Positions 7,691 through 57,507 are shown, counted from the stretch's first letter. The stretch is 64,000 bases of DNA from an uncultured Bacilli bacterium (GCA_934085675.1 CAKOHH010000004.1:9709-73708), one strand, 5' to 3'. Translations and numbers: made by a program. The notes: generated from the letters alone by a model not told the origin.

Positions 7691-7702
7691 ATTAAAGATA
7701 TT

Positions 7703-9349
7703 TTAAGACAAAGAATTGATTCTTTTTTCTAATTCTTCTTTTCCTAAAATAAGCATTATATCGTATAAATTTGGTGTTTTAGAACGTCCTGTCAAGGCAA
7801 CTCTTATAACAGTAGAAACATCAGCAACATTGCCTTTAAAGTTTTCAGGATTTTTCTTATATTCTTTCATATTAGAAGCATAACCAAGTTCATCACATAA
7901 AAGTTTTATTTTATTAAACCAATCTTCTTGATTATCTTTTTCATCATAATATTTTGTAATATAAGTTTGTAAAATATTTTTTATTTCATCCATATCATTT
8001 ATTTTTTGCCATTCGTAAGTTTCACATGCAAACTCGCCATACATATAGGAAATATTGTTTTTAATTTCACTAAACATGGCATAATCTTTACGTGGTTTTT
8101 CACATTCTCTTTCAATATTTAAAGTAGCAATGATGATATCTTTGTAAGTTTCTAAATCAGAAGAAAATTCTTCGTCATATATTTTAGCCCAAGATAAAAG
8201 TTCATTATAAAACTTTTCAGCACTAATGCGACTTAAATAGTTACGAGAAATATTAAGGAGTTTTTCCATATCAAATAAAGCTCCACTTGTACTCATGTTA
8301 TCAAATGACACATAAAAATCATTAATATTTTTATCAGGATTATTTAAAAACCATTCTTCAAAGTTAGAGTTAGCAAGAGTTAGTAAATAGATTTTAACAG
8401 CTTCTTTAGGAATACCTTTTTCGCTGTAATAAGCTACATTAGCTTCAGGATCTTTTCTCTTACTAATTTTTCTTCTTTTACCATCTTCTTCTTTTTGAAT
8501 CGTTGCTAAATGAGCATAATGAGGAACAGGGAACCCTAAAGTATTAAATAAATCCACATGGACTGGCAAGCTACTTACCCATTCATCACCACGAGTTACA
8601 TGTGTTGTTCCCATTAAAGTATCGTCAACTGCATGGGCAAAATGATAAGTTGGAATACCATCACTTTTTAATAAAACAATATCCATGTCATTTTCTGGAA
8701 ATTCAATACGACCTTTAATACAGTCATTAACAACAATTTTATTGTCAAAGCTTCCTTTACTTTTTAAACGAATAACATAAGGAATTCCTGCTTCTACTTT
8801 TTCTTTTACTTCTTCCATGGTCATAGCCCGTTCTTTACTAGCCCAAATGCCATAGTAACCAATTCTTTGTTTTCTTTTTTGTTGTTTTTCCGTAATTTCT
8901 TTTTTTTCTTCTTCGGTTAAAAAAGATGGATACGCTAAATCTTTAATAAGTAAATCTTTTACAAAAGCTTGATAAATATCTACTCTTTTACTTTGAACAT
9001 AAGGAGCATAATCTCCTACATAATGATTTATGTCTATTGGATATTCATCAAAATTAACCTCATATTCTTTAACAGAATTAATAATTTGGTCAATGGCATC
9101 TACAACTAAACGTTTTTGATCGGTATCCTCGATTCTTAAAAAACAGACACCACCTGATTCATGAGCCAGTCTTTCAGCCACGATTGCTTGGTAAAGAGTT
9201 CCAATATGAACAAAGCCCGTTGGACTTGGGGCAATACGAGTTACCATAGCCCCTTCTTTTAAATTTCTTTTTGGATATTTTTTTTCATAGTAAGTTCTAT
9301 CATGTAAAACATTAGGTAAAAGCATACTAGCATATTCTTCTCTTGTCAT
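7703..9349 (-). CDS. gltX: glutamate--tRNA ligase (GluRS/GlnRS class I family)
   Basis: 548 aa with RIAPSPTGFVHIGTL (HIGH motif), FLRIEDTDQKR and KISKR (KMSKS). Confidence 0.8.
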   Translation of the reverse strand: MTREEYASMLLPNVLHDRTYYEKKYPKRNLKEGAMVTRIAPSPTGFVHIGTLYQAIVAERLAHESGGVCFLRIEDTDQKRLVVDAIDQIINSVKEYEVNFDEYPIDINHYVGDYAPYVQSKRVDIYQAFVKDLLIKDLAYPSFLTEEEKKEITEKQQKRKQRIGYYGIWASKERAMTMEEVKEKVEAGIPYVIRLKSKGSFDNKIVVNDCIKGRIEFPENDMDIVLLKSDGIPTYHFAHAVDDTLMGTTHVTRGDEWVSSLPVHVDLFNTLGFPVPHYAHLATIQKEEDGKRRKISKRKDPEANVAYYSEKGIPKEAVKIYLLTLANSNFEEWFLNNPDKNINDFYVSFDNMSTSGALFDMEKLLNISRNYLSRISAEKFYNELLSWAKIYDEEFSSDLETYKDIIIATLNIERECEKPRKDYAMFSEIKNNISYMYGEFACETYEWQKINDMDEIKNILQTYITKYYDEKDNQEDWFNKIKLLCDELGYASNMKEYKKNPENFKGNVADVSTVIRVALTGRSKTPNLYDIMLILGKEELEKRINSLS

Positions 9350-43258: not shown

Positions 43259-44560
43259 TTATATACATTTGAAAATGATTTTTTCTGCTTCAAACTCAAT
43301 TTTATAGATATTACCTATTTCCTCAACCTTCTGAATAATACATTCTTTAAAAATAGTTTCATTATCTTTTAAAGTGATTTTTTTATTAAATATAGTAACA
43401 AAATCAAGTTTAGTAACTAACTCAAATTTATTTCCTTGCTTACAATATTTTTTTGTGTCTTTATTGATTTCTAACGATTGATTAAATTTCATTTTTTCAT
43501 TAATGGTACACTTTTTCCCTGTACTCTCTGCATATAATATATTAATAGATTTTTCTTCTCTTAGAATTTCATCTAAATTATATTTAATATTAATATTTTT
43601 AGTTTTAGAAATATATAATACTTTTTCTATCAAACCTGCTAACCTTTTAAAGAATTTCTTTTCCTTGTTAGTATGACCCTTTGCTTCAAAATTATTAAAA
43701 GTAAAAATATTTTGGTTTAGTTTCTTATTACTAACATTAATATTTGTATTATTATCATCCATTAAATATTTATATTTAAGCATTTTTAAATTATATTCAC
43801 AATCATTAAGATATTTTTCTCTAATTGAAATAGTAATATTAAATTTACCAGAAACACCATCATCAGTCTTTTCCATATTTGTTAATGAAATTGCAACATT
43901 AAAAGGCTCTTCAGTGGATTCTTTATTTGTTAATTTAATATTATCTCCTTCTCTCTTTTCTAGCCTTAAGCTTGTATCAATACGGAATGAATAATCAGAA
44001 TTATAAATATCAATTGCGTAAACCTGTGCAGGCGGCATTGGTGAAGGACATATATATAATTTTACACCTTCACTACCATATTTATTTGCATGTCCAACTG
44101 GATTTTCAAACTCACCTAAAAATTCCTTCATACTTATAATATTGGGAATTTCAACGGGTTTATCAGTTTTTTCTGCTTGTTCAATTAATTCATTCAAACC
44201 ATTTTTTCTAAATTTATCAGCTTCTTCAACAGAATCAAATTTCATATTATACTTTAAGTGTATTGGAAATTTTTTATATGCATCATCTGTTTTTGCACTT
44301 GCTTCAAAGCTAATTTTTTTACCGTTAAACTTTGGAACAATTTCAAAATCTTCTTGAAGTTGCTTAGGCAATAGTTTTTTTGTTAGAATATCTGTCCCAA
44401 CATCTAGACGATCTGTAAATAAATCTTCGATTTTTGTAATATCTTTATAATTGTTATTAATGCTATCTAAAGATAAAGCATCAGTCTGATTATTAACAAC
44501 TGTTATATCTATATTGCAGCCCTTATTTTTTTCAACATTTAATAAACTATTGTTTTGCAT
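43259..44560 (-). CDS. hypothetical protein (island cargo, no recognisable domain)
   Basis: 433 aa Lys/Asn-rich ORF with no identifiable catalytic motif, preceded by a translationally coupled 51-codon ORF. Confidence 0.5.
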   Translation of the reverse strand: MQNNSLLNVEKNKGCNIDITVVNNQTDALSLDSINNNYKDITKIEDLFTDRLDVGTDILTKKLLPKQLQEDFEIVPKFNGKKISFEASAKTDDAYKKFPIHLKYNMKFDSVEEADKFRKNGLNELIEQAEKTDKPVEIPNIISMKEFLGEFENPVGHANKYGSEGVKLYICPSPMPPAQVYAIDIYNSDYSFRIDTSLRLEKREGDNIKLTNKESTEEPFNVAISLTNMEKTDDGVSGKFNITISIREKYLNDCEYNLKMLKYKYLMDDNNTNINVSNKKLNQNIFTFNNFEAKGHTNKEKKFFKRLAGLIEKVLYISKTKNINIKYNLDEILREEKSINILYAESTGKKCTINEKMKFNQSLEINKDTKKYCKQGNKFELVTKLDFVTIFNKKITLKDNETIFKECIIQKVEEIGNIYKIEFEAEKIIFKCI

Positions 44561-44702
44561 TATTATCTCCTGAATCGTTTATTGATATATTACAGTTTTT
44601 ATTTTTTTTAATATCATATTTTGACTTTTTTTCAACTTTTATACTTATATCTTGTCCAAAAATCTTTTTTACAAAATCAATTATCTTTTTAACAATTTTC
44701 AT
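44547..44702 (-). CDS. possible 51-aa Lys-rich micro-protein translationally coupled to 43259..44560
   Basis: ATG at 44702 to TAG at 44547; reads MKIVKKIIDFVKKIFGQDISIKVEKKSKYDIKKNKNCNISINDSGDNNAKQ and overlaps the downstream start by 14 nt. It is below the ORF-track length cut-off. Confidence 0.25.
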   Translation of the reverse strand: MKIVKKIIDFVKKIFGQDISIKVEKKSKYDIKKNKNCNISINDSGDNNAKQ

Positions 44703-44810
44703 TATATCACCACCAATTAAATAATAATTTAATTAACATAATGACACTTATGACACTTTTTTATATGATACACTATGCATATTAAGTGACATAAGTGACA
44801 TACCAGTTAT

Positions 44811-46589
44811 TTACACATATTCCTCTTTCCAATGGATTATAGTATTGTTTATACACTCGTTCCATTGCTTGTATGAATCCAAACTTAATGTATTTTTGTG
44901 AATATCTCTTATTAATTCAACAAAGTATTTTATATGTATGTTTTTAGCATATATAAAACTTATCATGTCACTATATTGTTCAATTGTTAATGGTATTACA
45001 GGAACTGGATTACCCATCCAACTTTCCTTGTTTAAAAGGAAAAATTGCCAATCTGTTCTTTTATTTATAGAATTAGAAATAAATAATCCGTACACTTCTT
45101 TACCAGCATCTTGATCTATGAATTTCATAACATGATCAATAACACTAGAGCCTTCGTGTTCCCATTGTTGTACTCCACTCATAAGTGATACCTCCGGTAT
45201 TAAAATAGTGTCATTATAATAAAGTTCCATATCAGGTGTATTATTTTTACCTGGAGCAAAACTTTTAGGAGTTAAATCTTCTTCTACATCAAAATTTCTA
45301 ACAACATTTTGATTACCATCTATAGCTACTAAAGACTTCCATGTATTACATTCAAGCCATAATGCAGCCATATCTTCGCTCTCTCTTGATTTAATAGAAT
45401 CGAATCTATCAGTAATTTCTTTCCTAGTATCTTCATTTTTAGAAGTATATTTAATAAAGATTTCTTCATTCAATGTAGTTAATTTAGTAATTAATTCTTC
45501 TTCAAATAATTTTAATTCTGTTGAACTATCCATTGAATTGACTTTAGAATATAATTCTGCAGAATCTAATTCAATCTCCAATTCATATTTTTCATTAAAT
45601 ATATGAATAGTTTTATCTAATAAATTAATCTTATCAACTAATAATGATTTTCGATCATCCTTATTTTCCCAAGGAAGATTTATATTATCCGGATTACCAT
45701 ACCATTCCATATAAGCGTCAAGATTATCATTATTGATAGTTATAAATGAATATTTGCTATTAATTAATTCAACCTTTTTCTTAGAATGTTCAGCAATTCT
45801 AACCTTTTTATATAGTCCTCTACCAGAAATATCAAATAATCTAGTAAAATCAAGGGCTCTCATAATAGAATCTATATATGACAAAGGATCACCTTTATAA
45901 AGTTCTTTCACATAATCAAAATATTCTTTTGCATACTTATTGAAGATTTCTTTACATTCACTAGATTTCATTTTATTATCTAGCGCATTATAGTCTGCTC
46001 TAAATTTTTTTATAGAATTTGCCAAAGAATCATACTGAGATATATCATTACATAAGAAAATATATGCCAATTCATATCCATTTAAGTATTCAAGATCTAG
46101 TAATAATTTGATTATTATTTGTAATGGAAAAACTCTATTTCCATCTTTTATATCACGTCCGTAATTAGTGCATACAGAAGGAAAATTTATTTTTAAAAGT
46201 TGTTTTAAAAATAATTCACTATCAAATTTACCTTCTGAAATTAGTTTTCCTGCTTTAGTAACTCTAATTAATCCTTCATTATCAATATATCCAAATCCAT
46301 AAAATTTATATGTAGCAAGATCATTTCTAGCATTACTTTCAGAATCTGCTTTACCATCTTTAGTACCATTTAGATAATCTTCATAAGATAAACCATTAAT
46401 AGGAGAATCCTCTTCCTCTAGTTGTGCATCAAAATAATACTTTCTTCTAATTGGGTGAATCTTTATATTATTTGCATCAAGCTTATTAGCTGTATAATTC
46501 CAATTTTCATTTTCTAAATTTGAAAAATATTTAAACCATTGAACTGTTTTAATTACACTTCGTGGTTTATTTCTCCAGCCCCAACTCAT
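44811..46589 (-). CDS. AlwI/BstNBI-family type IIS restriction endonuclease (or nicking enzyme) homolog
   Basis: 592 aa. The segments YKFYGFGYIDNEGLIRVTKAGKLI...FLKQLLKINFPS and the C-terminal NTPDMELYYNDTILIPEVS match my recollection of N.BstNBI/RE_AlwI-family enzymes. It lies immediately downstream of a DNA MTase. Confidence 0.55.
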   Translation of the reverse strand: MSWGWRNKPRSVIKTVQWFKYFSNLENENWNYTANKLDANNIKIHPIRRKYYFDAQLEEEDSPINGLSYEDYLNGTKDGKADSESNARNDLATYKFYGFGYIDNEGLIRVTKAGKLISEGKFDSELFLKQLLKINFPSVCTNYGRDIKDGNRVFPLQIIIKLLLDLEYLNGYELAYIFLCNDISQYDSLANSIKKFRADYNALDNKMKSSECKEIFNKYAKEYFDYVKELYKGDPLSYIDSIMRALDFTRLFDISGRGLYKKVRIAEHSKKKVELINSKYSFITINNDNLDAYMEWYGNPDNINLPWENKDDRKSLLVDKINLLDKTIHIFNEKYELEIELDSAELYSKVNSMDSSTELKLFEEELITKLTTLNEEIFIKYTSKNEDTRKEITDRFDSIKSRESEDMAALWLECNTWKSLVAIDGNQNVVRNFDVEEDLTPKSFAPGKNNTPDMELYYNDTILIPEVSLMSGVQQWEHEGSSVIDHVMKFIDQDAGKEVYGLFISNSINKRTDWQFFLLNKESWMGNPVPVIPLTIEQYSDMISFIYAKNIHIKYFVELIRDIHKNTLSLDSYKQWNECINNTIIHWKEEYV

Positions 46590-46598
46590 ATAAACCTC

Positions 46599-47717
46599 CT
46601 AAAAATCATAATTAGTGATCAATAAATGTTCAACATCTTTATCATTTCTATTCATAAAACTTACTAAATATTTTTTATCAAACGATTCTATATTAAATCC
46701 TCTATCTTTATATAAGTCATATATAAAATCTGTATTTTTTATAATTAACATAAACTTAGCTTTTGTTTTTGATAAGTAATTTGCTAATCTTATTTGATCA
46801 TCTTTATCAAAATCATTTTTTGCATATGTAGAAAATTCAGTATCGTATGGAGGATCTAAAAACATGAAATCATTCTCTGTTAATTCTACTTTGTTACAAA
46901 AAACTTCAAAATCATAATTACATATTTTTGTTTTACTCATATATTTATTTAATTCATCAGAAGATACATAATCTATCTTTTTAGTAAAGTCTTTTCTGTT
47001 ATAACTGATTCCACCATAAGGTACATTAAATTCACCATTAGCATTATATCTAAACATAGATGCATAGCAAAAATCTCTAACAAAATAAAATACTGCGCAA
47101 TAGAATTCATCACTTAACTTCAATTTTTTCTTATTATTATAAAGGTATCTAAAATACATATAGTAAGCGCTTTTAAAGGCACACTCAATATTACTCATTA
47201 TATCGCTTACATTCATTTCATTTCGTTCAAGCTCAATTTTTTTCATTCTGTTTAATTTTGATATTAAATTCTTCTTAACTTCTTTAATAAAATTATATAA
47301 ATTAATATCAAAATCTTCTTCTAATAGACTATTTAATTCTTTAGTATGTTTTTCAACAAACTTTTCCACTAATTCATCAGCACTATTTTTGTTACTTTTA
47401 ACTTTATCATAAATATCAGATAATTCATTTGTATTATCTTCAACCAAACGTTGAAGCGAAATCCAATTCTTATTTATTTGATTTAAGCTATCAATAAAAC
47501 CTTTATCATGTTTTTTTATCATTTTATAAAGTAACATTAATTCATCAGATTTATCATTAATAACCGAATTTTCACAATTTATATTTAGATATACTGCTCC
47601 TCCACCTACAAATGGTTCAACATATCTATTAAAATTTTTAGGCAAGTTTTTTAAAATTATTGGCAGTTCTTTTTCTTTACCACCTGCCCACTTAATAAAC
47701 GTCTTTCTATTTTGCAT
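46599..47717 (-). CDS. Dam-like (alpha-class, D12) N6-adenine DNA methyltransferase
   Basis: 372 aa with FIKWAGGKEKE (motif X/I region), EPFVGGGAV (SAM binding) and DPPY (motif IV) in alpha-class order. Confidence 0.8.
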   Translation of the reverse strand: MQNRKTFIKWAGGKEKELPIILKNLPKNFNRYVEPFVGGGAVYLNINCENSVINDKSDELMLLYKMIKKHDKGFIDSLNQINKNWISLQRLVEDNTNELSDIYDKVKSNKNSADELVEKFVEKHTKELNSLLEEDFDINLYNFIKEVKKNLISKLNRMKKIELERNEMNVSDIMSNIECAFKSAYYMYFRYLYNNKKKLKLSDEFYCAVFYFVRDFCYASMFRYNANGEFNVPYGGISYNRKDFTKKIDYVSSDELNKYMSKTKICNYDFEVFCNKVELTENDFMFLDPPYDTEFSTYAKNDFDKDDQIRLANYLSKTKAKFMLIIKNTDFIYDLYKDRGFNIESFDKKYLVSFMNRNDKDVEHLLITNYDF

Positions 47718-47733
47718 ACAGTATCCCCCAATC

Positions 47734-48573
47734 TTAATTTATTAAATCTATATATATAGTTTTACCATCGTATTTCCAAACAGACTTAGATGGATTAAAT
47801 ACATTATCTTTAGTTAATAATCCATATTTTCTGTACATTTCAGTTATTCCTTGTGAAAAATATCTTCTATCTGAACTTATCCTTACATCTTTAATATCAT
47901 TTCCATTAAAGCATAAATCGAATTTATCACAGTCAGAAGGCAATTCATCAAATATTGCACGAGGAATACTAATAATCCTAGCTCTTATATCATTTGCGGT
48001 AATATCTTTTTCAATATCACTGACAATATATTCATTAGCATTATCATCAACAATATTTTCAACAACAGAATTCTTTTTATAAAATTTATTTAATTCATCA
48101 TAACTAAATACTGGTTTATATACAAATCCAATATTATTTTCAATACAAATATCAACTAGCATTTTTCCGTCAATTAATACAATTGGTCTGTCATCACTTG
48201 TTTCTGCTTTTAATTTGGCTGGGCTAGAGAACATAGCAGTAGTAATAACAATTCCTTTTTCACCAGATGTCATATTACCTCTTAGCTTATCTATAATATC
48301 AACAGATATTTTTTCGGATGGTTTAAATCTTTTAGCTTGTACGATATATTTTACAGAATCATCATTATTATTGATAACACCATATCTTATGCCTTCCAAA
48401 TCAACTCCACCATCTCCAGAACGTTTTGTAACTCTTACTTCATCTAATCCAAGACATTCCAATAATGGTTTTAAAAAATCTTCAAAATCATATCCAGTTT
48501 CAAACGATTTATATAATGCTTCAAGTATTGCTTCCTTTTCTTTTTGATCTAACTCAATCTTTTTCATACACAA
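47734..48573 (-). CDS. Mrr_cat (PD-(D/E)xK) restriction endonuclease domain protein with an unknown C-terminal domain
   Basis: 279 aa; the N-terminal ~150 aa match Mrr_cat (FEDFLKPLLECLGLDEVRVTKRSGDGGVDLEG...YIVQAKRF...GIVITTAMFSSPA); the C-terminal ~130 aa are uncharacterised. Confidence 0.65.
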   Translation of the reverse strand: MCMKKIELDQKEKEAILEALYKSFETGYDFEDFLKPLLECLGLDEVRVTKRSGDGGVDLEGIRYGVINNNDDSVKYIVQAKRFKPSEKISVDIIDKLRGNMTSGEKGIVITTAMFSSPAKLKAETSDDRPIVLIDGKMLVDICIENNIGFVYKPVFSYDELNKFYKKNSVVENIVDDNANEYIVSDIEKDITANDIRARIISIPRAIFDELPSDCDKFDLCFNGNDIKDVRISSDRRYFSQGITEMYRKYGLLTKDNVFNPSKSVWKYDGKTIYIDLIN

Positions 48574-48576
48574 CTC

Positions 48577-49101
48577 CTATATATCTTTAGGCAACTTACT
48601 GTAATCATATTTAGTTGCTATCTCTTTTAATTCTTGTATTTCTTTATCAATATCTTCTAATGCTTTATCTAATGTATAATCGGTTTCTGCGGCCTCTTTT
48701 ATTAATCTTAAACCTAATTTTATTTCATTTAAGTTTTGCATTATCTTTAATGTTTTTTTTCTTTTATTAGCATCCCAATCTAAAATATCGTATTTAAATA
48801 ATCTACATTCTTCTATAGTATTCTTTAAATCTTTTGTAGATTTATTTTTAAACTCATCATGAGAAAACCAACTCACAACTTCATTATAACCAGCAGCATT
48901 TAAAAGCTGTTGTAATGATAAATCTAATTCTTCTGCAATTCTTTTCAAAATTTCTGGATCTGGTTTAGCTACTCTACCATTTTCTATATCATTTAAAGAA
49001 GAATTACTTATTCCAACTCTTCTTGCAAGTTCTCTTTGAGAATACTCTTTTGCAGTTCTTCCTCCAACAATTAATGTAGTTAATGCTTCACTATTGTTCA
49101 T
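48577..49101 (-). CDS. XRE-family HTH transcriptional regulator (candidate controller or repressor of the R-M operon)
   Basis: 174 aa with an N-terminal HTH (SQRELARRVGISNSSLNDIENGR) and a C-terminal helical domain ending KYDYSKLPK; first gene of a 4-gene minus-strand operon. Confidence 0.7.
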   Translation of the reverse strand: MNNSEALTTLIVGGRTAKEYSQRELARRVGISNSSLNDIENGRVAKPDPEILKRIAEELDLSLQQLLNAAGYNEVVSWFSHDEFKNKSTKDLKNTIEECRLFKYDILDWDANKRKKTLKIMQNLNEIKLGLRLIKEAAETDYTLDKALEDIDKEIQELKEIATKYDYSKLPKDI

Positions 49102-49229
49102 AATTTCACTTCCTTAAAAGTCTTCTTATTCTCTTTCCTATTCATTATATCACATTTTGTCAGTTTTACAAAACATTTTTGTTCGGAATACTTGACAATT
49201 AAATTTATTTATAACTATATTGGTTTTTA

Positions 49230-50625
49230 TAGATTTTTATTGAAAGTGCACAATTAATGTGCAATAAGTTTAAGAAACATATATAATATCTTCTTAAGCA
49301 ATTTGTTTGTCATTAAGGAGGTATTGAAAATGACAAATTATTCTCATTTGTCTTATGAAGATAGAAGAAATATTGAAGATGGATTAAATGCAAATAAATC
49401 CATAAATCAAATTGCTAAAGAATTATGCAGAAATCATTCTACAATCTTAAGAGAAATAGATAGAAACAAAAAATATTCGGAACCATCAACCTGGAACAAT
49501 TATAAAATTACTCATCCGGATTTGGATTTGTCTTGTGAAAGATTAAAACATTCCCCTTATGTTTGTAATGGTTGTAAATCTAGAAGTGGCTGTCGAAAAA
49601 TTAGATGGACTTACTATGCTAGAGAATCTCAAAAATCATATGAAGAATTAATTAAATCTTGTAGACAAGGTGTTAATCTAACTTTAGAAGAAATACATGC
49701 TATTAACGAAACTATAACTCCTCTTGTCAAAAAAGGTCAGACAACTAATCATTTGTATATTAATCATCCTGATATTTTAGATTTCAGTAAAAGTTCTTTT
49801 TATCGTTATATTAAAGATGGAATTTTTGAATTTGGTCCTTTAGATTTTCCAAGAATTGTTAAATATTAAAAAAGAAAAAATTCAAGTCAAAGAAGAACAA
49901 GAAAAGAACGTGAAATACTGATTAATAGAAAATATACTGATTTTATCGAATTTATTTCTAACAATCCAGATTTAAATATTGTTGAAATGGATACTGTTGA
50001 AGGTCTACAAACAGAATCCGATTGTTTCCTTACATTACTTTGGAGAAAGTCTAAATTAATGCTTATATTTAAATTAGAATTCCAAATAACGGATGAAGTA
50101 ACAAGAATTTTTGAAACATTACAAGTTCTTATTCCTTTAGATATTTATAAAATATTTATTTCAAATCATTCTTACTGACAATGGTCACGAATTTTTTGAC
50201 GTTAGTAATATTGAATGTATCCATTCAACGGGTGAATATGTCACTCATCTATTTTTTTGTGATCCACATGCTTCTAGTCAGAAAGGAGCCATTGAAAAAA
50301 ATCATGAATTCATTAGATATATTTTACCTAAAGGTTCCTCTTTCAAAAATATTACTCAGGAAGACTGTCATCTAATTATGAATACTATTAATTCATTATG
50401 TAGAGATTCATTGAATGGTAAATCACCTTATGAAGCAATGCTATTTTTATGTAGTGAAGATAATTAAAATTATTAAATTGTTATTATATTGAACCTGATA
50501 ACGTTAATTTAACAAATAATTTATAAAAGCAAAAATAATTATGGCTCAAACTATAATTATTCCTACGACAAACAAGTTGCCAAAAATCCAATAATTTGTT
50601 TTATGTAGGCGTTGTGCACTTAGTT
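49230..50625 (+). mobile_element. IS30-family insertion sequence, decayed
   Basis: Contains a disrupted IS30-type transposase gene, flanked by imperfect inverted ends sharing agtgcacaa (49240s and reverse complement at about 50600). Confidence 0.55.
49303..50470 (+). pseudogene. IS30-family transposase, disrupted by a stop and at least one frameshift
   Basis: ORF1 carries the IS30 N-terminal HTH (LSYEDRRNIEDGLNANKSINQIAKELCRNHSTILREIDRN). Later frames carry DTVEG...LLTLLWRKSK and TDNGHEFF...KSPYEAM (DDE region) split across frames. Confidence 0.6.
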
Positions 50626-50770: not shown

Positions 50771-51860
50771 TTGAGTCGTAATGCACATAATTATGCACTT
50801 TATTTAGAATTCAACGGTGTATATAAAACTAAAGATGGTAAGATATGGTTTTATAAGACTCAATATGAAGATATTGATGGAACTCATAAAACTAAGAAAT
50901 CAGGTATATATACAACTAAAAAAGAAGCAGAAAATGCTGAGTTTGAATTTAAATTAAAAATATGAGAATATGAGAATATGAGAATACCAATAATGTGACT
51001 TTTGAAGAAATGATTAGAATGTTTATTGATTTTAGAAAAGATAAAGTTAAGGAAAACACATTATATGTGTTATAACAATAAATTACCTTATTTAAAATCA
51101 CTATATAAAGTTAAACTTAAAGATTTTAACTACCCTCCTTTTGAAAGATGGCATGATGAAATAAATAGTACTCATCTTGCTACAAGAACTAAGAATAACA
51201 TTTATAAAATATTAAAAACTATTTTAAATTATGCTACTGCATGGCATGATTTTATCTTTGCTAAGGCATATCCTAAAATGTATAACTTTAATGATCCTAA
51301 TGAATTCCCTAAAGAACAATTATTTTTTACTTACGAGGAATTCAGATAATTTTTCTCCGTTGAAACTGATATCAAATGGGTCGGCATTTTTGAAATATTA
51401 TATTACTGTAGATTAAGACGTGGTGAACTTAGAGGATTACAATGAAAAGATATCTATTTTAAAGATAGAACATTAAGTATATCCAAACAAATTAATGACC
51501 GCTGTGGATCCGTTAAAAATTGGTGATTCTCAGTTTCAAAAACTAAAAGTAGTAATAAGAATATTAAAGATGCCACAAGCCCTCGCAAGCGACCTTAAAG
51601 CAATGAAAAACAAGGCAGAAAAGATACCTAGATTCAATGATAATTTCTTTGTCGCAGGAGATATGCTTCCTGTATGTAGCAATACACTTACTAATCATAA
51701 AAATGCTAATTGTAAATTAGCTAATGTTAAACAGATTCGATTACATGATTTCAGACATTCTTGTGCATCTCTTCTGGTTAATAAAGTTGCTAATGTTCAT
51801 GTTGTAGCAAAATACTTAGGACATACAAAAGTTGAAGAAACATTAAAAACTTATTAACAA
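50771..51860 (+). pseudogene. tyrosine recombinase/phage integrase, decayed (multiple frameshifts, TGG to TGA, lost C-terminal Tyr motif)
   Basis: The N-terminal arm-binding-like ORF, the core-binding segment (VTFEEMIRMFIDFRKDKVKENT..., KLKDF...WHDEIN) and the catalytic C-terminus (IRLHDFRHSCASLLV...AKYLGHTKVEETLKTY*) lie in three different frames. GLQ(TGA)KDIY sits where the W of GL.W.D is expected. Confidence 0.65.
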
Positions 51861-51948: not shown

Positions 51949-53388
51949 TTATACTTTAGACACTATTAAACTTGTTTTTTCTTGAAGTACATTTAAAAAT
52001 TCTTTGTGTGCATGTTCATAACATTTTAATGCTCTAATTATATCTGCATCTGTTATTGGTAAAATCAAACCATGCTCATCTAAGTAGGTATCTGCACAAC
52101 TATTAATAAACTTATCATACTTTTCAATTGTCCTACACGATAATATACCAATTTGTCCTCTTCTGGTGCTAAATCTTCCAAGCAATTGATCTAATTCTGG
52201 ATTCTGTGGATCATTTTTATAGTTTTTACATTCGACTATTATTTGTAGGCTTGTCATCTTAATCTTATCTGATATTACTGCAAAATAGCCCTCTTCAGCT
52301 ATATTGGAAAAAATAATATCAATTCTTTTTCTTCCCTCATGGATTTTTTCCTCTTTTCGTGGATTAGATAAATCTGGATAAGTTAAGAACTCATATATTC
52401 CTATCATTAAGTTATGATAATCAGAAGCACTATCTGTTCCAACTGGAATGGACTTTAATTTTTCTATCATAAAATTAGATACATCTTCATAATTAACCTC
52501 AGTCAATAGTTCTCCATTCATACAATTAGTATTCTTGTTTTTACTCTTAAAATCATTAAAAATTTCTGGGTGTTTAACTGTAAAATCCAAGATATATTTT
52601 TTATCCATTACTGGTTCTTTTTCAATAATAGACTTTTTTGTAACATATCTTTCTTTTGTTGTTTTTCTAATTTTTACCAAAGATGTTTCGTTTTCAATAT
52701 TTTCCTTTTGTAAAAAGTTTAAAATAAAATGTTGTCTATATTTTGATGGTGTATATGTTTCACAGAAGCTTATAATTGATTTTGGTACTAATAATACAGG
52801 TGTATTATCTACTACCAACCTATCAATATATTTGTTTTCCCATTTGTGGGTTTCCATATTCCAACAATACCCTGATGGTACATTTTTAGTAAGAAGAATA
52901 TTATTTAACTCACATTGTTCAATTGTATATTCTAAGAGTTTTATTCTGATAATATTTGTTATTAAATCTGACAATTTATCTCTGTCTATATTTTCAATAA
53001 ACATTCTCAAATCCTCAATATTTTCTAATACACCATATTCTATAGCCTTACTATTCTTTAATTGTGTAAAAATATCCAAGGTACCACTTTGTCCAATACC
53101 TTTCCCTCTTGATTTATTCTTTGATAATCCAAGATGTGTTTCATTTACTTCGCCTATTCTGGTACAAATCATTCTTGCTTTATCATCCATATTGTTTTTT
53201 AACAAACCAATTAAATATGAGAAGAAATCTTGTAACAAGTCGTTACATGCCACTGTAAAATCAGAGTTACATTTTGCTATTAACGTTGAATCAACAAATA
53301 AAGGAATATCTTTTTCAGTATCAATATTTACAAAATCTAATTCTAATTGTGTTTTATTCAAATTATAAATATTACTAATTGTTGCCAT
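51949..53388 (-). CDS. hypothetical protein with a C-terminal PD-(D/E)xK nuclease-like domain
   Basis: 479 aa; the C-terminal ~130 aa show GRKRIDIIFSN...LQIIVECKNYKN...QIGILSC, consistent with a restriction-endonuclease-like D...(D/E)xK core; the N-terminal 340 aa are unassigned. Confidence 0.5.
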   Translation of the reverse strand: MATISNIYNLNKTQLELDFVNIDTEKDIPLFVDSTLIAKCNSDFTVACNDLLQDFFSYLIGLLKNNMDDKARMICTRIGEVNETHLGLSKNKSRGKGIGQSGTLDIFTQLKNSKAIEYGVLENIEDLRMFIENIDRDKLSDLITNIIRIKLLEYTIEQCELNNILLTKNVPSGYCWNMETHKWENKYIDRLVVDNTPVLLVPKSIISFCETYTPSKYRQHFILNFLQKENIENETSLVKIRKTTKERYVTKKSIIEKEPVMDKKYILDFTVKHPEIFNDFKSKNKNTNCMNGELLTEVNYEDVSNFMIEKLKSIPVGTDSASDYHNLMIGIYEFLTYPDLSNPRKEEKIHEGRKRIDIIFSNIAEEGYFAVISDKIKMTSLQIIVECKNYKNDPQNPELDQLLGRFSTRRGQIGILSCRTIEKYDKFINSCADTYLDEHGLILPITDADIIRALKCYEHAHKEFLNVLQEKTSLIVSKV

Positions 53389-53389
53389 A

Positions 53390-54016
53390 TTACCTCACTT
53401 TTGACCACTGACAATCATCATCTTCTGGAATTTGATCTATACTAGTAGGTCTTATTATTTCATTAACTTTATATAGTTCCATTAACATATCCTTAGTTTC
53501 TTCAATGGAAATATTAAAATTATTAGCAATTTCTTTAGTAGTAGTAGCATAATTCATACAAATATATTTATATATTTCATCTAAATTAACTATACTTGAA
53601 CTAATTAACTGTGATTCCCCTGTTTCTAAATAATTCAAAAAATTAAGTGTATTGATTATGCAATTGACAACATATAAAGATTCCTCATTTGATAAAACAT
53701 TATTATCATGTGCATAACTTTTATTATTTCTTATATCATTAAACTTTTCAAAAATGGATATAGATTGTTTTAATGCTTGAATACTAAATTCACTAATTTG
53801 ATTTTCACTTGAATAATACTTTATTAGCATGCCCATTAAACTATGTAAAGGTAGTCCTTCATTTTTATCATTTAAAATATCAATATTATGCAATAAACAA
53901 TAACTTCTAATTTTTTTGATAGTAAAAGTATGTAATCGATCTAATGCAAGTACCGCTTCACCATCTGCTAAAGATTTTCTTATGTCTTTCTTTAATTTTT
54001 CCAATTGTGCATCCAT
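53390..54016 (-). CDS. HEPN-motif protein with a C-terminal winged-helix-like domain
   Basis: 208 aa; DIRNNKSYAHDNN gives an R-x6-H HEPN-type motif within a helical N-domain; the C-terminal YATTTKEIANNFNISIEETKDMLMELYK looks like a wHTH. Its stop overlaps the start of 51949..53388. Confidence 0.5.
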   Translation of the reverse strand: MDAQLEKLKKDIRKSLADGEAVLALDRLHTFTIKKIRSYCLLHNIDILNDKNEGLPLHSLMGMLIKYYSSENQISEFSIQALKQSISIFEKFNDIRNNKSYAHDNNVLSNEESLYVVNCIINTLNFLNYLETGESQLISSSIVNLDEIYKYICMNYATTTKEIANNFNISIEETKDMLMELYKVNEIIRPTSIDQIPEDDDCQWSKVR

Positions 54017-56577: not shown

Positions 56578-57507
56578 TCATATATAGTTCCTGATTTTTG
56601 CACTTCTTCTTAAATATCTTAATGATTTTGCTTCTATTTGTCCTACTCTTAATTTTGTTAAACTATGTCTCTTCCCAACCATTTCCAACGTTTCAGGTTT
56701 TCCACTATCTAATCCAAATCTTTCATGAATAATAGATTTTTTTCTTTCATCAATAAGTACACTATCAACATCTTTTTTAAACTTTTCATTATAAATTTTT
56801 TCAATTACTTTATCTTCATAATTTATCTCATCCTTAAAGTTATTATTTAATCTATCAAACATACCAATATTAATAATAACTCTAATAAATTCATATATTT
56901 TTGTTTTTGCTATATTTAAAGTACATTCGTTTTTTATATTTAAATTTGTATAAATTTTATCTAATAATGGAATTACATTTTCAACATCTATAGTACGATA
57001 ACAGAACCAGTTGTTATATTCTTTACATTTTGATATAAAATCATTAGCATTAAAATTTTTTCCACTATTTTTTAAATAGATATAACTGCTCAATAAAGCA
57101 ATTAAACACTCAGTAGAAATACCAAACTGCTCTTTAATCACTATTTCATCCCCACATAATTTTTTATATACTTCGCTAAAAAATGAAGTTGTAAAAATAT
57201 TTGAAAAACTGTCAACTTTTAATAAATCGCCATTATATATTTTATTAATCCAAACTTCATTAAAAGAACTAATAATATCATCCATATCAAATGAAAAAGA
57301 ACAAAACATTTCAATATCATTTCTTTTTATATAATCATAAACAACATAAAGTGTTCCTAATATGATTTTATCCATATATATTTTTTTAATATTAATATCA
57401 CTAGACATATTAGCTTTCTTGTATAATTCTTTTGTTTCTTCAATCTTTAATCTTTCAATTGAAGATATTTTTTTTTGCCATTTTTCTAATTTACTAATGT
57501 TCTTCAT
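56578..57507 (-). CDS. divergent sigma-70 family RNA polymerase sigma factor
   Basis: 309 aa. The C-terminal ERFGLDSGKPETLEMVGKRHSLTKLRVGQIEAKSLRYLRR is a clear sigma-70 region 4. The N-terminal KIYMDKIILGTLYVVYDYIKR...DMDDIISSFNEVWINKIY resembles region 2. Confidence 0.6.
   Translation of the reverse strand: MKNISKLEKWQKKISSIERLKIEETKELYKKANMSSDINIKKIYMDKIILGTLYVVYDYIKRNDIEMFCSFSFDMDDIISSFNEVWINKIYNGDLLKVDSFSNIFTTSFFSEVYKKLCGDEIVIKEQFGISTECLIALLSSYIYLKNSGKNFNANDFISKCKEYNNWFCYRTIDVENVIPLLDKIYTNLNIKNECTLNIAKTKIYEFIRVIINIGMFDRLNNNFKDEINYEDKVIEKIYNEKFKKDVDSVLIDERKKSIIHERFGLDSGKPETLEMVGKRHSLTKLRVGQIEAKSLRYLRRSAKIRNYI

Follow-up and report, generated by a model that had tools for sequence, protein, structure and literature searches.

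Positions 44811-49101 of the window, a 64,000-nucleotide stretch of DNA from an uncultured Bacilli bacterium (GCA_934085675.1 CAKOHH010000004.1:9709-73708), carry four genes of a restriction-modification (R-M) locus on the minus strand: a helix-turn-helix (HTH) regulator, a nuclease with an Mrr_cat domain, a DNA methyltransferase (MTase) and a restriction endonuclease (REase). We propose that they form a portable anti-phage defence cassette of 4.4 kb, in which a promoter ahead of the Xre/SinR-like HTH regulator would drive all four genes as one operon and which would comprise two functional units, an R-M pair of Type IIS in the style of MlyI and PleI and an optional accessory nuclease. This overall explanation, with the accessory nuclease acting in a modification-dependent manner, we consider about equally likely to be right or wrong. 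The gene content, the protein families, the conserved catalytic residues, the presence or absence of the accessory gene and its recurrent linkage to N-methylating R-M operons were observed directly; the recognition sequences, the regulation of the operon and the substrate of the accessory nuclease are predicted. The R-M core is judged to be one more member of the known MlyI/PleI-like Type IIS kind, and the accessory nuclease is, by the searchable literature, the undescribed part.

The genes follow each other in the order HTH regulator (48577-49101; 174 amino acids (aa); Pfam HTH_3, 1.3e-14), accessory nuclease (47734-48573; 279 aa; Mrr_cat, 4.9e-20), MTase (46599-47717; 372 aa; MethyltransfD12, 4.5e-34) and REase (44811-46589; 592 aa; RE_AlwI, 9.5e-39), with gaps of 3, 16 and 9 nucleotides (nt) between the open reading frames (ORFs). 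They thus lie exactly where a sequence-only reading of this DNA had placed four tightly spaced minus-strand genes, and each of the four families that it had named (HTH, Mrr_cat, Dam-like MTase and RE_AlwI) is backed by Pfam. Its range of 3 to 16 bp for the gaps holds for the ORFs as called; the 3-nt gap is probably one of 9 nt, because all homologues of the Mrr_cat protein are 277 aa long and begin with MKK, which most likely puts the true start of the gene at ATG 48567 and gives a product of 277 aa. A Shine-Dalgarno sequence GGAG before the Mrr_cat start overlaps the stop codon of the HTH gene, the MTase start is preceded by GGGGG, and the AGGAGG of the REase gene overlaps the MTase stop. Read from these signals, the junctions of the four genes are those of tight translational coupling, and the earlier claim of an R-M operon holds, its genes being co-oriented and tightly coupled.

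The same four genes were found with 97.6% nucleotide identity on an independent contig (L021) of an uncultured Tenericutes metagenome-assembled genome, probably of the lineage from which the window comes, which identifies them as a real conserved unit. The homology between the two contigs ends exactly at 49227 and 44810, and the flanks on both are unrelated; the four-gene set therefore moves as a block, and the whole portable cassette, promoter included, spans 44810..49227 on the minus strand. In the window it sits in a variable island with uvrC/rpsT on one side and miaA/mutL on the other.

Within the cassette, the accessory gene behaves as a module of its own. A second related contig, L013, is collinear with the window over 49225-48578 (promoter and HTH gene, 89% identity) and over 47711-44814 (MTase and REase genes, 85%; the REase itself is 85% identical), and the 866 nt that hold the Mrr_cat gene are replaced there by 24 nt. 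Because this indel is precise and the contigs are otherwise collinear, the Mrr_cat gene is an exact presence/absence cassette; L018 likewise carries a closely related MTase-REase pair without it. We propose that the accessory nuclease is optional and separately mobile and has been inserted between the regulator and MTase genes.

In a census, full-length homologues of the accessory nuclease turned up in 39 species-level genomes, the carriers being Clostridia, Bacilli/Tenericutes, Fusobacterium, Bacteroidales and Pasteurellaceae, many of them gut and oral bacteria. The commonest home of the gene is the DpnII-type GATC operon with a D12 MTase, a DpnA-like MTase and the DpnII REase (about 20 loci, including those of Fusobacterium vincentii and Ruminococcus bromii ATCC 27255), in which its position varies; in the cultured F. 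vincentii SB055 it lies at 659320-660108 of NZ_CP084075. It further occurs with a long D12 MTase and an RE_AlwI REase in two gene orders (the window and L021; L035), with a long D12 MTase and a PF09520 REase (L005-8, L022), with a DpnM-like MTase and a REBASE-type REase composed of DUF6996, DUF6997 and DUF7226 (PADLOC PDLC03513; L001-4), and with an N6_N4 MTase and a PDLC03487 REase (L031, L051). At L050, and perhaps L047, its neighbour is an MTase and no further nuclease was recognised, at L058 it lies in a Type I locus, and about 10 copies stand alone by housekeeping or mobile-element genes (e.g. L023, L037 and L038); Gallibacterium trehalosifermentans CCM 7539 is one such solitary carrier. 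Records with a hit in PLSDB and among phages are without annotation. A motif of 5-methylcytosine MTases was present near the gene in one of the 39 loci. The accessory nuclease thus recurs as a module of N-methylating Type II operons, five kinds of which, spread across phyla, carry it, and the presence of an Mrr_cat gene in such an operon is not the oddity for which it had been taken. With regard to DpnII/MboI/LlaDCHI-type operons, the window differs in combining a long MTase and an RE_AlwI REase instead of DpnM and DpnII.

The accessory protein appears to be built from an MspJI/Mrr-type catalytic domain fused to a predicted B3-like DNA-binding domain. In the nuclease domain (residues 26-143; 48145..48498, minus strand), the catalytic D58...Q79-A-K81 aligns to the GDGGVD and QAK elements of MspJI. 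The protein matches the MspJI sequence in the PDB at 3.3e-5, and Foldseek searches with a full-length AF2 model (predicted local distance difference test, pLDDT, of 84) returned MspJI at 1e-7 and AspBHI at 4e-6; PADLOC models of methyl-directed REases (mREase) are among the nearest relatives of this domain. In 28 homologues, residues D54, G55, G56, D58, Q79, A80 and K81 do not vary, so that by sequence the D..QxK motif is intact. MspJI and AspBHI (Type IIM/IV) and the Mrr protein of E. coli thus share with it a homologous nuclease domain, as judged by sequence and predicted fold, and this motif. They differ in that their reader, an SRA-like or winged-helix domain, is N-terminal, whereas here the nuclease is N-terminal and the B3-like reader C-terminal, and in that the window gene forms part of a Type II operon.

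The C-terminal domain of about 97 aa (47737..48033, minus strand) belongs to an un-annotated family. Its AF2 model, calculated for the domain alone, has a pLDDT of 95, and the only significant Foldseek matches were the plant B3 structures 1yel (2e-4) and 4i1k (9e-3), with template modelling (TM) scores of 0.47-0.57; we therefore assign the predicted B3-like fold, a DNA-binding pseudobarrel, with moderate confidence. No match to Pfam or to PDB sequences was obtained, even with a profile, and Foldseek retrieved no prokaryotic B3-like structures. In a library-wide search the domain was found almost only in Mrr_cat fusions of about 280 aa and in fragments of these, one exception being its fusion to an NgoFVII-like phospholipase D (PLD) nuclease in P0305, on a 2-kb contig. 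P0305 has the architecture of BfiI and NgoAVII, and the combination of a nuclease with a pseudobarrel-type DNA-binding domain is shared with BfiI, EcoRII, NgoAVII/NgoFVII and UbaLAI; sequence-level kinship with these enzymes was not found, Foldseek having matched plant B3 domains only. Pfam and fold searches likewise gave no known modified-base reader (SRA-like or Mrr_N winged helix) in the accessory nuclease. Iyer, Zhang & Aravind (2016, PMC4738411) described RAMA- and HARE-HTH-nuclease fusions from R-M systems of the N6-adenine kind, and these too join a small DNA-binding domain to an REase-fold nuclease in operons with adenine MTases. RAMA (PF18755) was considered for the C-terminal domain and rejected, as Pfam gave no match at E<=10 and no RAMA structure of CcrM or MPND appeared in the Foldseek lists; in this the window protein differs from those fusions. 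A description of a nuclease of this kind was not found in the searchable literature (Mrr, B3-like and DpnII).

A natural swap bears on what this nuclease acts on. The window protein and its homologue P0011 are 79% identical overall and about 90% identical in the C-terminal domain, with the conserved polar positions unchanged, yet P0011 accompanies a DpnM-like GATC MTase (1e-79 to 2dpm) and the window copy a long MTase. Residues N194, D195, R197 and W266 are invariant in accessory nucleases across operons of five R-M types, and the phylogeny of these proteins does not track the type of MTase. From this swap, the phylogeny, the invariant residues and the solitary copies we infer that the enzyme is aimed at something other than the site of the adjacent MTase, and an MspJI-like catalytic domain found in the company of only N-methylating MTases leads to the same conclusion. 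The action of the accessory nuclease thus seems to be independent of the methylation specificity of the operon. It would provide a second, modification-dependent restriction line that tolerates N6-adenine methylation; a Type IV-like enzyme of this kind, compatible with self-marking by N6-methyladenine (m6A), is the reading that we prefer, at somewhat short of an even chance.

The REase matches the RE_AlwI profile over practically its full length (residues 106-540 on model positions 13-439 of 441), and its closest solved relative is N.BspD6I (2ewf; 2.3e-29, residues 80-550, about 470 residues); the profile match and the alignment bear out the earlier assignment to the RE_AlwI/BstNBI family. Among PADLOC models, the best are REase_II models of nicking endonucleases (5e-30 and 6e-26). 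The C-terminal cleavage domain (about residues 410-592; 44814..45362, minus strand) aligns to N.BspD6I and to 2p14, the small subunit of BspD6I, which the last 180 residues match at 3.3e-10. Residues D453, E466, E477 and H486 align to the active-site block PDME...GEVT...E...H of N.BspD6I, the version in the window reading PDME...EVS...E...H; the active site of Nt.BspD6I is reportedly made up of D456/E469/E482/H489. On the strength of this alignment the PD-(D/E)XK site is intact.

A tblastn search of the whole window with the cleavage domain found no second copy, only the domain itself, and the model of a BstNBI/BspD6I heterodimer therefore does not apply. The window REase shares the D/E/E/H active-site residues with that system (Nt.BspD6I, 2ewf; small subunit, 2p14) and differs from it in the lack of a small-subunit gene and in low identity outside the conserved blocks. 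With its FokI-like architecture the 592-aa enzyme would read asymmetric GAGTC and cut a few bp away, probably by transient dimerisation, which we propose because no gene for a small subunit is present.

The MTase is a single D12 domain in 372 aa, encoded 9 nt upstream of the REase gene. It matches NCBIfam TIGR00571 at 5.5e-52 and passes the cut-off of the "dam" subfamily. Motif I (FVGGG) is N-terminal and DPPY C-terminal, which places it in the alpha class; PADLOC models of double-domain MTases match it only at the N-terminal motif. The claim of a sole, alpha-class, Dam-like MTase is thereby confirmed. Its alignment to DpnM (2dpm) is split in two (query residues 6-78 to 13-85 and 184-371 to 95-283), and the split delimits an insertion of about 96 aa in the target-recognition region (residues 79-183; 47169..47480, minus strand). 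All long-clade D12 MTases (370-395 aa) share this insert in the target-recognition domain (TRD) and an extra insert of 8 aa in a hairpin after PYGG, as was foreseen in the suggestion that the TRD of the 372-aa enzyme may differ from that of Dam. Of the features of Dam and DpnM, the D12 catalytic core is present, and a collinear TRD and beta-hairpin are absent. The identity to DpnM-like GATC enzymes is only about 30-35%; the L001 MTase, by contrast, matches DpnM (2dpm) at 1e-79. On these comparisons the window MTase is no orthologue of DpnM or Dam.

Enzymes of the long clade are the sole MTase beside an RE_AlwI REase in the window and in L013, L014, L018-20 and L035, the pair occurring alone in L018, and they are also the sole MTase beside a PF09520 REase in L005-8, L022 and L101-107, the last set including Anaerofustis stercorihominis DSM 17244 and [Eubacterium] hominis. 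The AlwI-linked MTase of L018 and the PF09520-linked MTase of L005 are 81% identical; with the window MTase, the L005 enzyme shares 73% identity and that of L018 70%. In sequence, then, the RE_AlwI-linked and PF09520-linked long MTases are intermixed, and the two REase families are interchangeable at 73-81% identity.

Since the long MTases are so similar across the two families, one methylation motif must protect against both kinds of REase. The RE_AlwI family holds enzymes for GGATC (AlwI) and for GAGTC (MlyI, PleI and BstNBI); PF09520 is the MjaII/TdeIII (GGNCC) family, whose known members cut 5-bp sites of the form G-x-N-x-C and not GATC. With an adenine MTase, the one motif that fits both families is GANTC or a subset of it, which is why we favour it. 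MlyI is served by a single MTase recognising GASTC, and AlwI by two MTases (for GGATC and GATCC) that are fused in one chain (Pingoud/Wilson/Wende review, PMC4081073). The window resembles the MlyI/PleI systems (GAGTC; one GASTC MTase) in having an RE_AlwI-family REase beside a single adenine MTase that would cover both strands of a quasi-palindromic site (PMC4081073), a likeness by description and not by sequence comparison, and adds to them an HTH regulator and a second nuclease; with AlwI (GGATC 4/5) it shares the Pfam family of the REase and, unlike it, has one single-domain D12 MTase of 372 aa in place of two MTases in one chain. Similar by description only is Moth_0026, an MTase annotated as Dam for which REBASE predicts GASTC and GAWTC was measured (PMC6700114). 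A literature search for GANTC together with "D12 class" MTases returned nothing. We consider it fairly probable that the MTase methylates GANTC/GASTC and that the REase cleaves GAGTC. The MTase with its enlarged TRD would then modify both strands of a GANTC/GASTC-type degenerate palindrome, so that one MTase is enough; this agrees with the earlier point that a single MTase implies a quasi-palindromic target. A specificity for GATC/GGATC is in our view unlikely, and the remaining probability goes to some other sequence. The sequence-only reading had predicted methylation of GATC and cleavage of GGATC after the model of AlwI. That prediction finds no support in the split DpnM alignment, the 30-35% identity and the sharing of the clade with PF09520 REases, and in the literature AlwI has two fused MTases and MlyI one GASTC MTase (PMC4081073).

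Several observations weigh against the proposed explanation and lend weight to its rivals. B3-like domains of EcoRII, BfiI and NgoAVII read specific unmodified sequences and not modified bases; the B3-like assignment has a TM score of about 0.5 and is not accompanied by a match at the sequence level; the accessory gene comes directly after the HTH gene, like the REase gene of a classical C-R pair; and in L050, possibly also in L047, a D12 MTase has the accessory nuclease as its only recognisable nuclease, a layout that an ordinary methylation-sensitive REase would show. The Mrr_cat/B3-like protein could indeed be such an enzyme, Type IIS-like, with a B3-like domain that reads the site of the partner MTase, so that two REases would share one MTase. 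Its architecture of nuclease and B3-like reader is that of BfiI, EcoRII and UbaLAI, the same C-terminal domain is joined to a PLD nuclease in P0305, and among MTases the gene is linked exclusively to N-methylating ones. What makes this reading rather doubtful, although it is the strongest of the alternatives, is that C-terminal domains about 90% identical and unaltered in their conserved polar positions serve beside a long and a DpnM-like MTase, that N194, D195, R197 and W266 do not vary with the R-M type, and that in about 10 of the 39 genomes the gene has no MTase nearby and lies beside housekeeping genes. A further possibility, that the Mrr_cat protein stands in functionally for the small subunit of BspD6I/BstNBI and cleaves the second strand for a nicking RE_AlwI enzyme, could draw on the closeness of the REase to the nickase N.BspD6I, on the nicking endonucleases among its best PADLOC models and on the lack of a canonical small subunit in the window. 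We regard it as highly improbable: the real small subunit is a paralogue of the cleavage domain of the large subunit, to which the Mrr_cat protein is unrelated, the close MTase-REase pairs of L013 and L018 do without the accessory gene, and its homologues mostly occur next to DpnII or another REase or by themselves.

The predicted recognition sequence meets objections of its own. Newer Pfam releases label PF09520 "HinfI", a family label without an alignment to HinfI behind it, and the names of PF09520 homologues gave only "TdeIII family" or "MjaII" and no direct link to HinfI. In the window, moreover, GATC is the most depleted tetramer, with 62 sites against about 167 expected (observed/expected ratio, O/E, of 0.37). 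All parts could be directed at GATC: the MTase would be of the Dam type, the REase an isoschizomer of AlwI (GGATC) and the Mrr_cat/B3-like protein a second, m6A-sensitive endonuclease, every operon with the accessory gene being a GATC system. Most homologues of the accessory nuclease do occur in DpnII-type GATC operons, the 79%-identical copy beside a DpnM-like MTase would call for no switch of specificity if GATC were shared, the MTase passes the "dam" cut-off of TIGR00571, and a GATC MTase would protect AlwI sites (PMC4081073). The explanation of the accessory protein as an ordinary REase would gain if this were true. Against it stand the partnership of the long clade with PF09520 REases, at 81% identity across REase families and with known members cutting 5-bp G-x-N-x-C sites, the two-piece DpnM alignment with its TRD insert of about 96 aa and hairpin insert of 8 aa, and the two fused MTases of the real AlwI system. 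The depletion of GATC is general in these gut lineages, being similar in unrelated loci that include some without such systems. We hold the all-GATC alternative to be unlikely, below the ordinary-REase reading and well above the small-subunit one, and retain the MlyI/PleI-style pair with an independently acting accessory nuclease.

Two lines of argument on specificity were dropped. Motif depletion was assessed in the window and in pooled loci; the window gave O/E values of 0.62 for GASTC (z -2.6, a weak depletion), 0.96 for GAWTC and 1.23 for GGATC, all from small 5-mer counts, and GASTC depletion was also seen in unrelated loci. As GATC avoidance is lineage-wide and the 5-mer counts are too small, depletion was abandoned as a test. 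Changes in the beta-hairpin at positions corresponding to N120 (to A) and L122 (to M) of EcoDam were likewise given up as an argument against GATC, T4 Dam having S and M at the matching positions; the insertions alone were kept as evidence.

The 174-aa HTH_3 protein, Xre/SinR-like and with a match to the NCBIfam SlrR-like model (1.7e-7, residues 15-143), is a candidate controller (C) protein. Its gene and promoter are 89% identical in nucleotide sequence in L013, where the HTH gene directly precedes the MTase-REase pair, and homologues (41% aa identity) head the operons of L001 and L005. A consensus scan located a candidate promoter, TTGTAA-16 nt-TATAAT with the TG of an extended -10 element (10/12 match), at 49144..49171 on the minus strand, and this promoter-like block upstream of the HTH gene is kept in L013 and L021; promoter-like sites in the region are no more numerous than in shuffled sequences. 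A scan of the region for terminators found none, and a search for operator (C-box) repeats upstream of the HTH gene gave only weak AT-rich palindromes. Autoregulation of the operon by the HTH protein is plausible.

On its downstream side the cassette is followed by a 51-aa ORF that overlaps the start of a 433-aa ORF (43259-44702, minus strand), neither with a match in Pfam, NCBIfam or PADLOC; L013 and L021 have ORFs of 75 and 635 aa in place of this pair. Just past the end of the cassette homology, the stretch 44740-44800 contains tandem 9-mers, perfect or nearly so, that share a TGTCA core and form two pairs (TGTCACTTA twice at 44800-44783; AGTGTCATA/AGTGTCATT at 44757-44740). They overlap a promoter-like site that precedes the ORFs of 51 and 433 aa, and may be an operator or a recombination site. 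Mobile-element remnants lie just upstream of the cassette on the plus strand (49303-50375 and 50771-51857). They are an IS30-type transposase (HTH_38, weak transpos_IS30) in pieces that lie in several frames and a tyrosine integrase whose Arm-DNA-bind_4 and Phage_integrase parts are now separate fragments. At 51949-54016 (minus strand) a 479-aa protein without a Pfam domain, which PADLOC links to its candidate defence family PDC-M36A (4.9e-43), is directly followed by a 208-aa Abi_C (abortive infection C-terminus) protein; the pair probably gives the island a second defence module. In the related Tenericutes/Bacilli contigs L013 and L001, alternative R-M cassettes, HTH-MTase-RE_AlwI or HTH-Mrr-DpnM-like MTase-REase, occupy the same slot downstream of recG, which suggests a hot spot for cassette exchange.

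Other loci and the composition of the window provided additional observations. In L001-L004 a 423-aa DUF6996-DUF6997-DUF7226 protein (7698-8969) is encoded downstream of the DpnM-like MTase, and its full-length match to the REBASE-derived PADLOC Type II REase model PDLC03513 (2.3e-98) suggests that the three domains together form a restriction endonuclease, probably one related to GATC. Proteins of 818-916 aa with a Sigma70_r4 or PIN-TPR-GreABC domain are encoded directly downstream of several R-M operons (L001, 9276-11813; L005, 9032-11782; L041, 1267-3723), and the island in the window holds a 309-aa Sigma70_r4 protein (56578-57507); such proteins may be a further linked defence component. 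Across the whole window CTTA/TAAG is depleted almost as strongly as GATC (O/E 0.64, z -10.8).

Taken together, the data point to a large clade of long Dam-family MTases that are routinely annotated as Dam and probably methylate sites of the GANTC type, a specificity to be reckoned with when gut-microbiome methylomes are interpreted and when the carrier organisms are to be made transformable. The accessory nuclease matters more than the MTase-REase core, as it is conserved, retains its catalytic residues and carries an un-annotated predicted DNA-binding domain. We tentatively suggest, with less assurance than for its dependence on modification, that the Mrr_cat/B3-like proteins found an undescribed family of accessory nucleases, in which a B3-like reader, possibly of modified DNA, is part of a swappable cassette inside N6-adenine Type II operons. 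If so, one operon would strike unmodified invaders with its Type II REase and otherwise modified evaders with its Type IV-like nuclease, and no self-mark other than methylation of the m6A type would be tolerated by both arms. Should the nuclease prove to depend on modification and its reader to have a new fold, it would represent a new class of tool enzymes and would illustrate clearly how Type II and Type IV restriction can be fused in one transcription unit.

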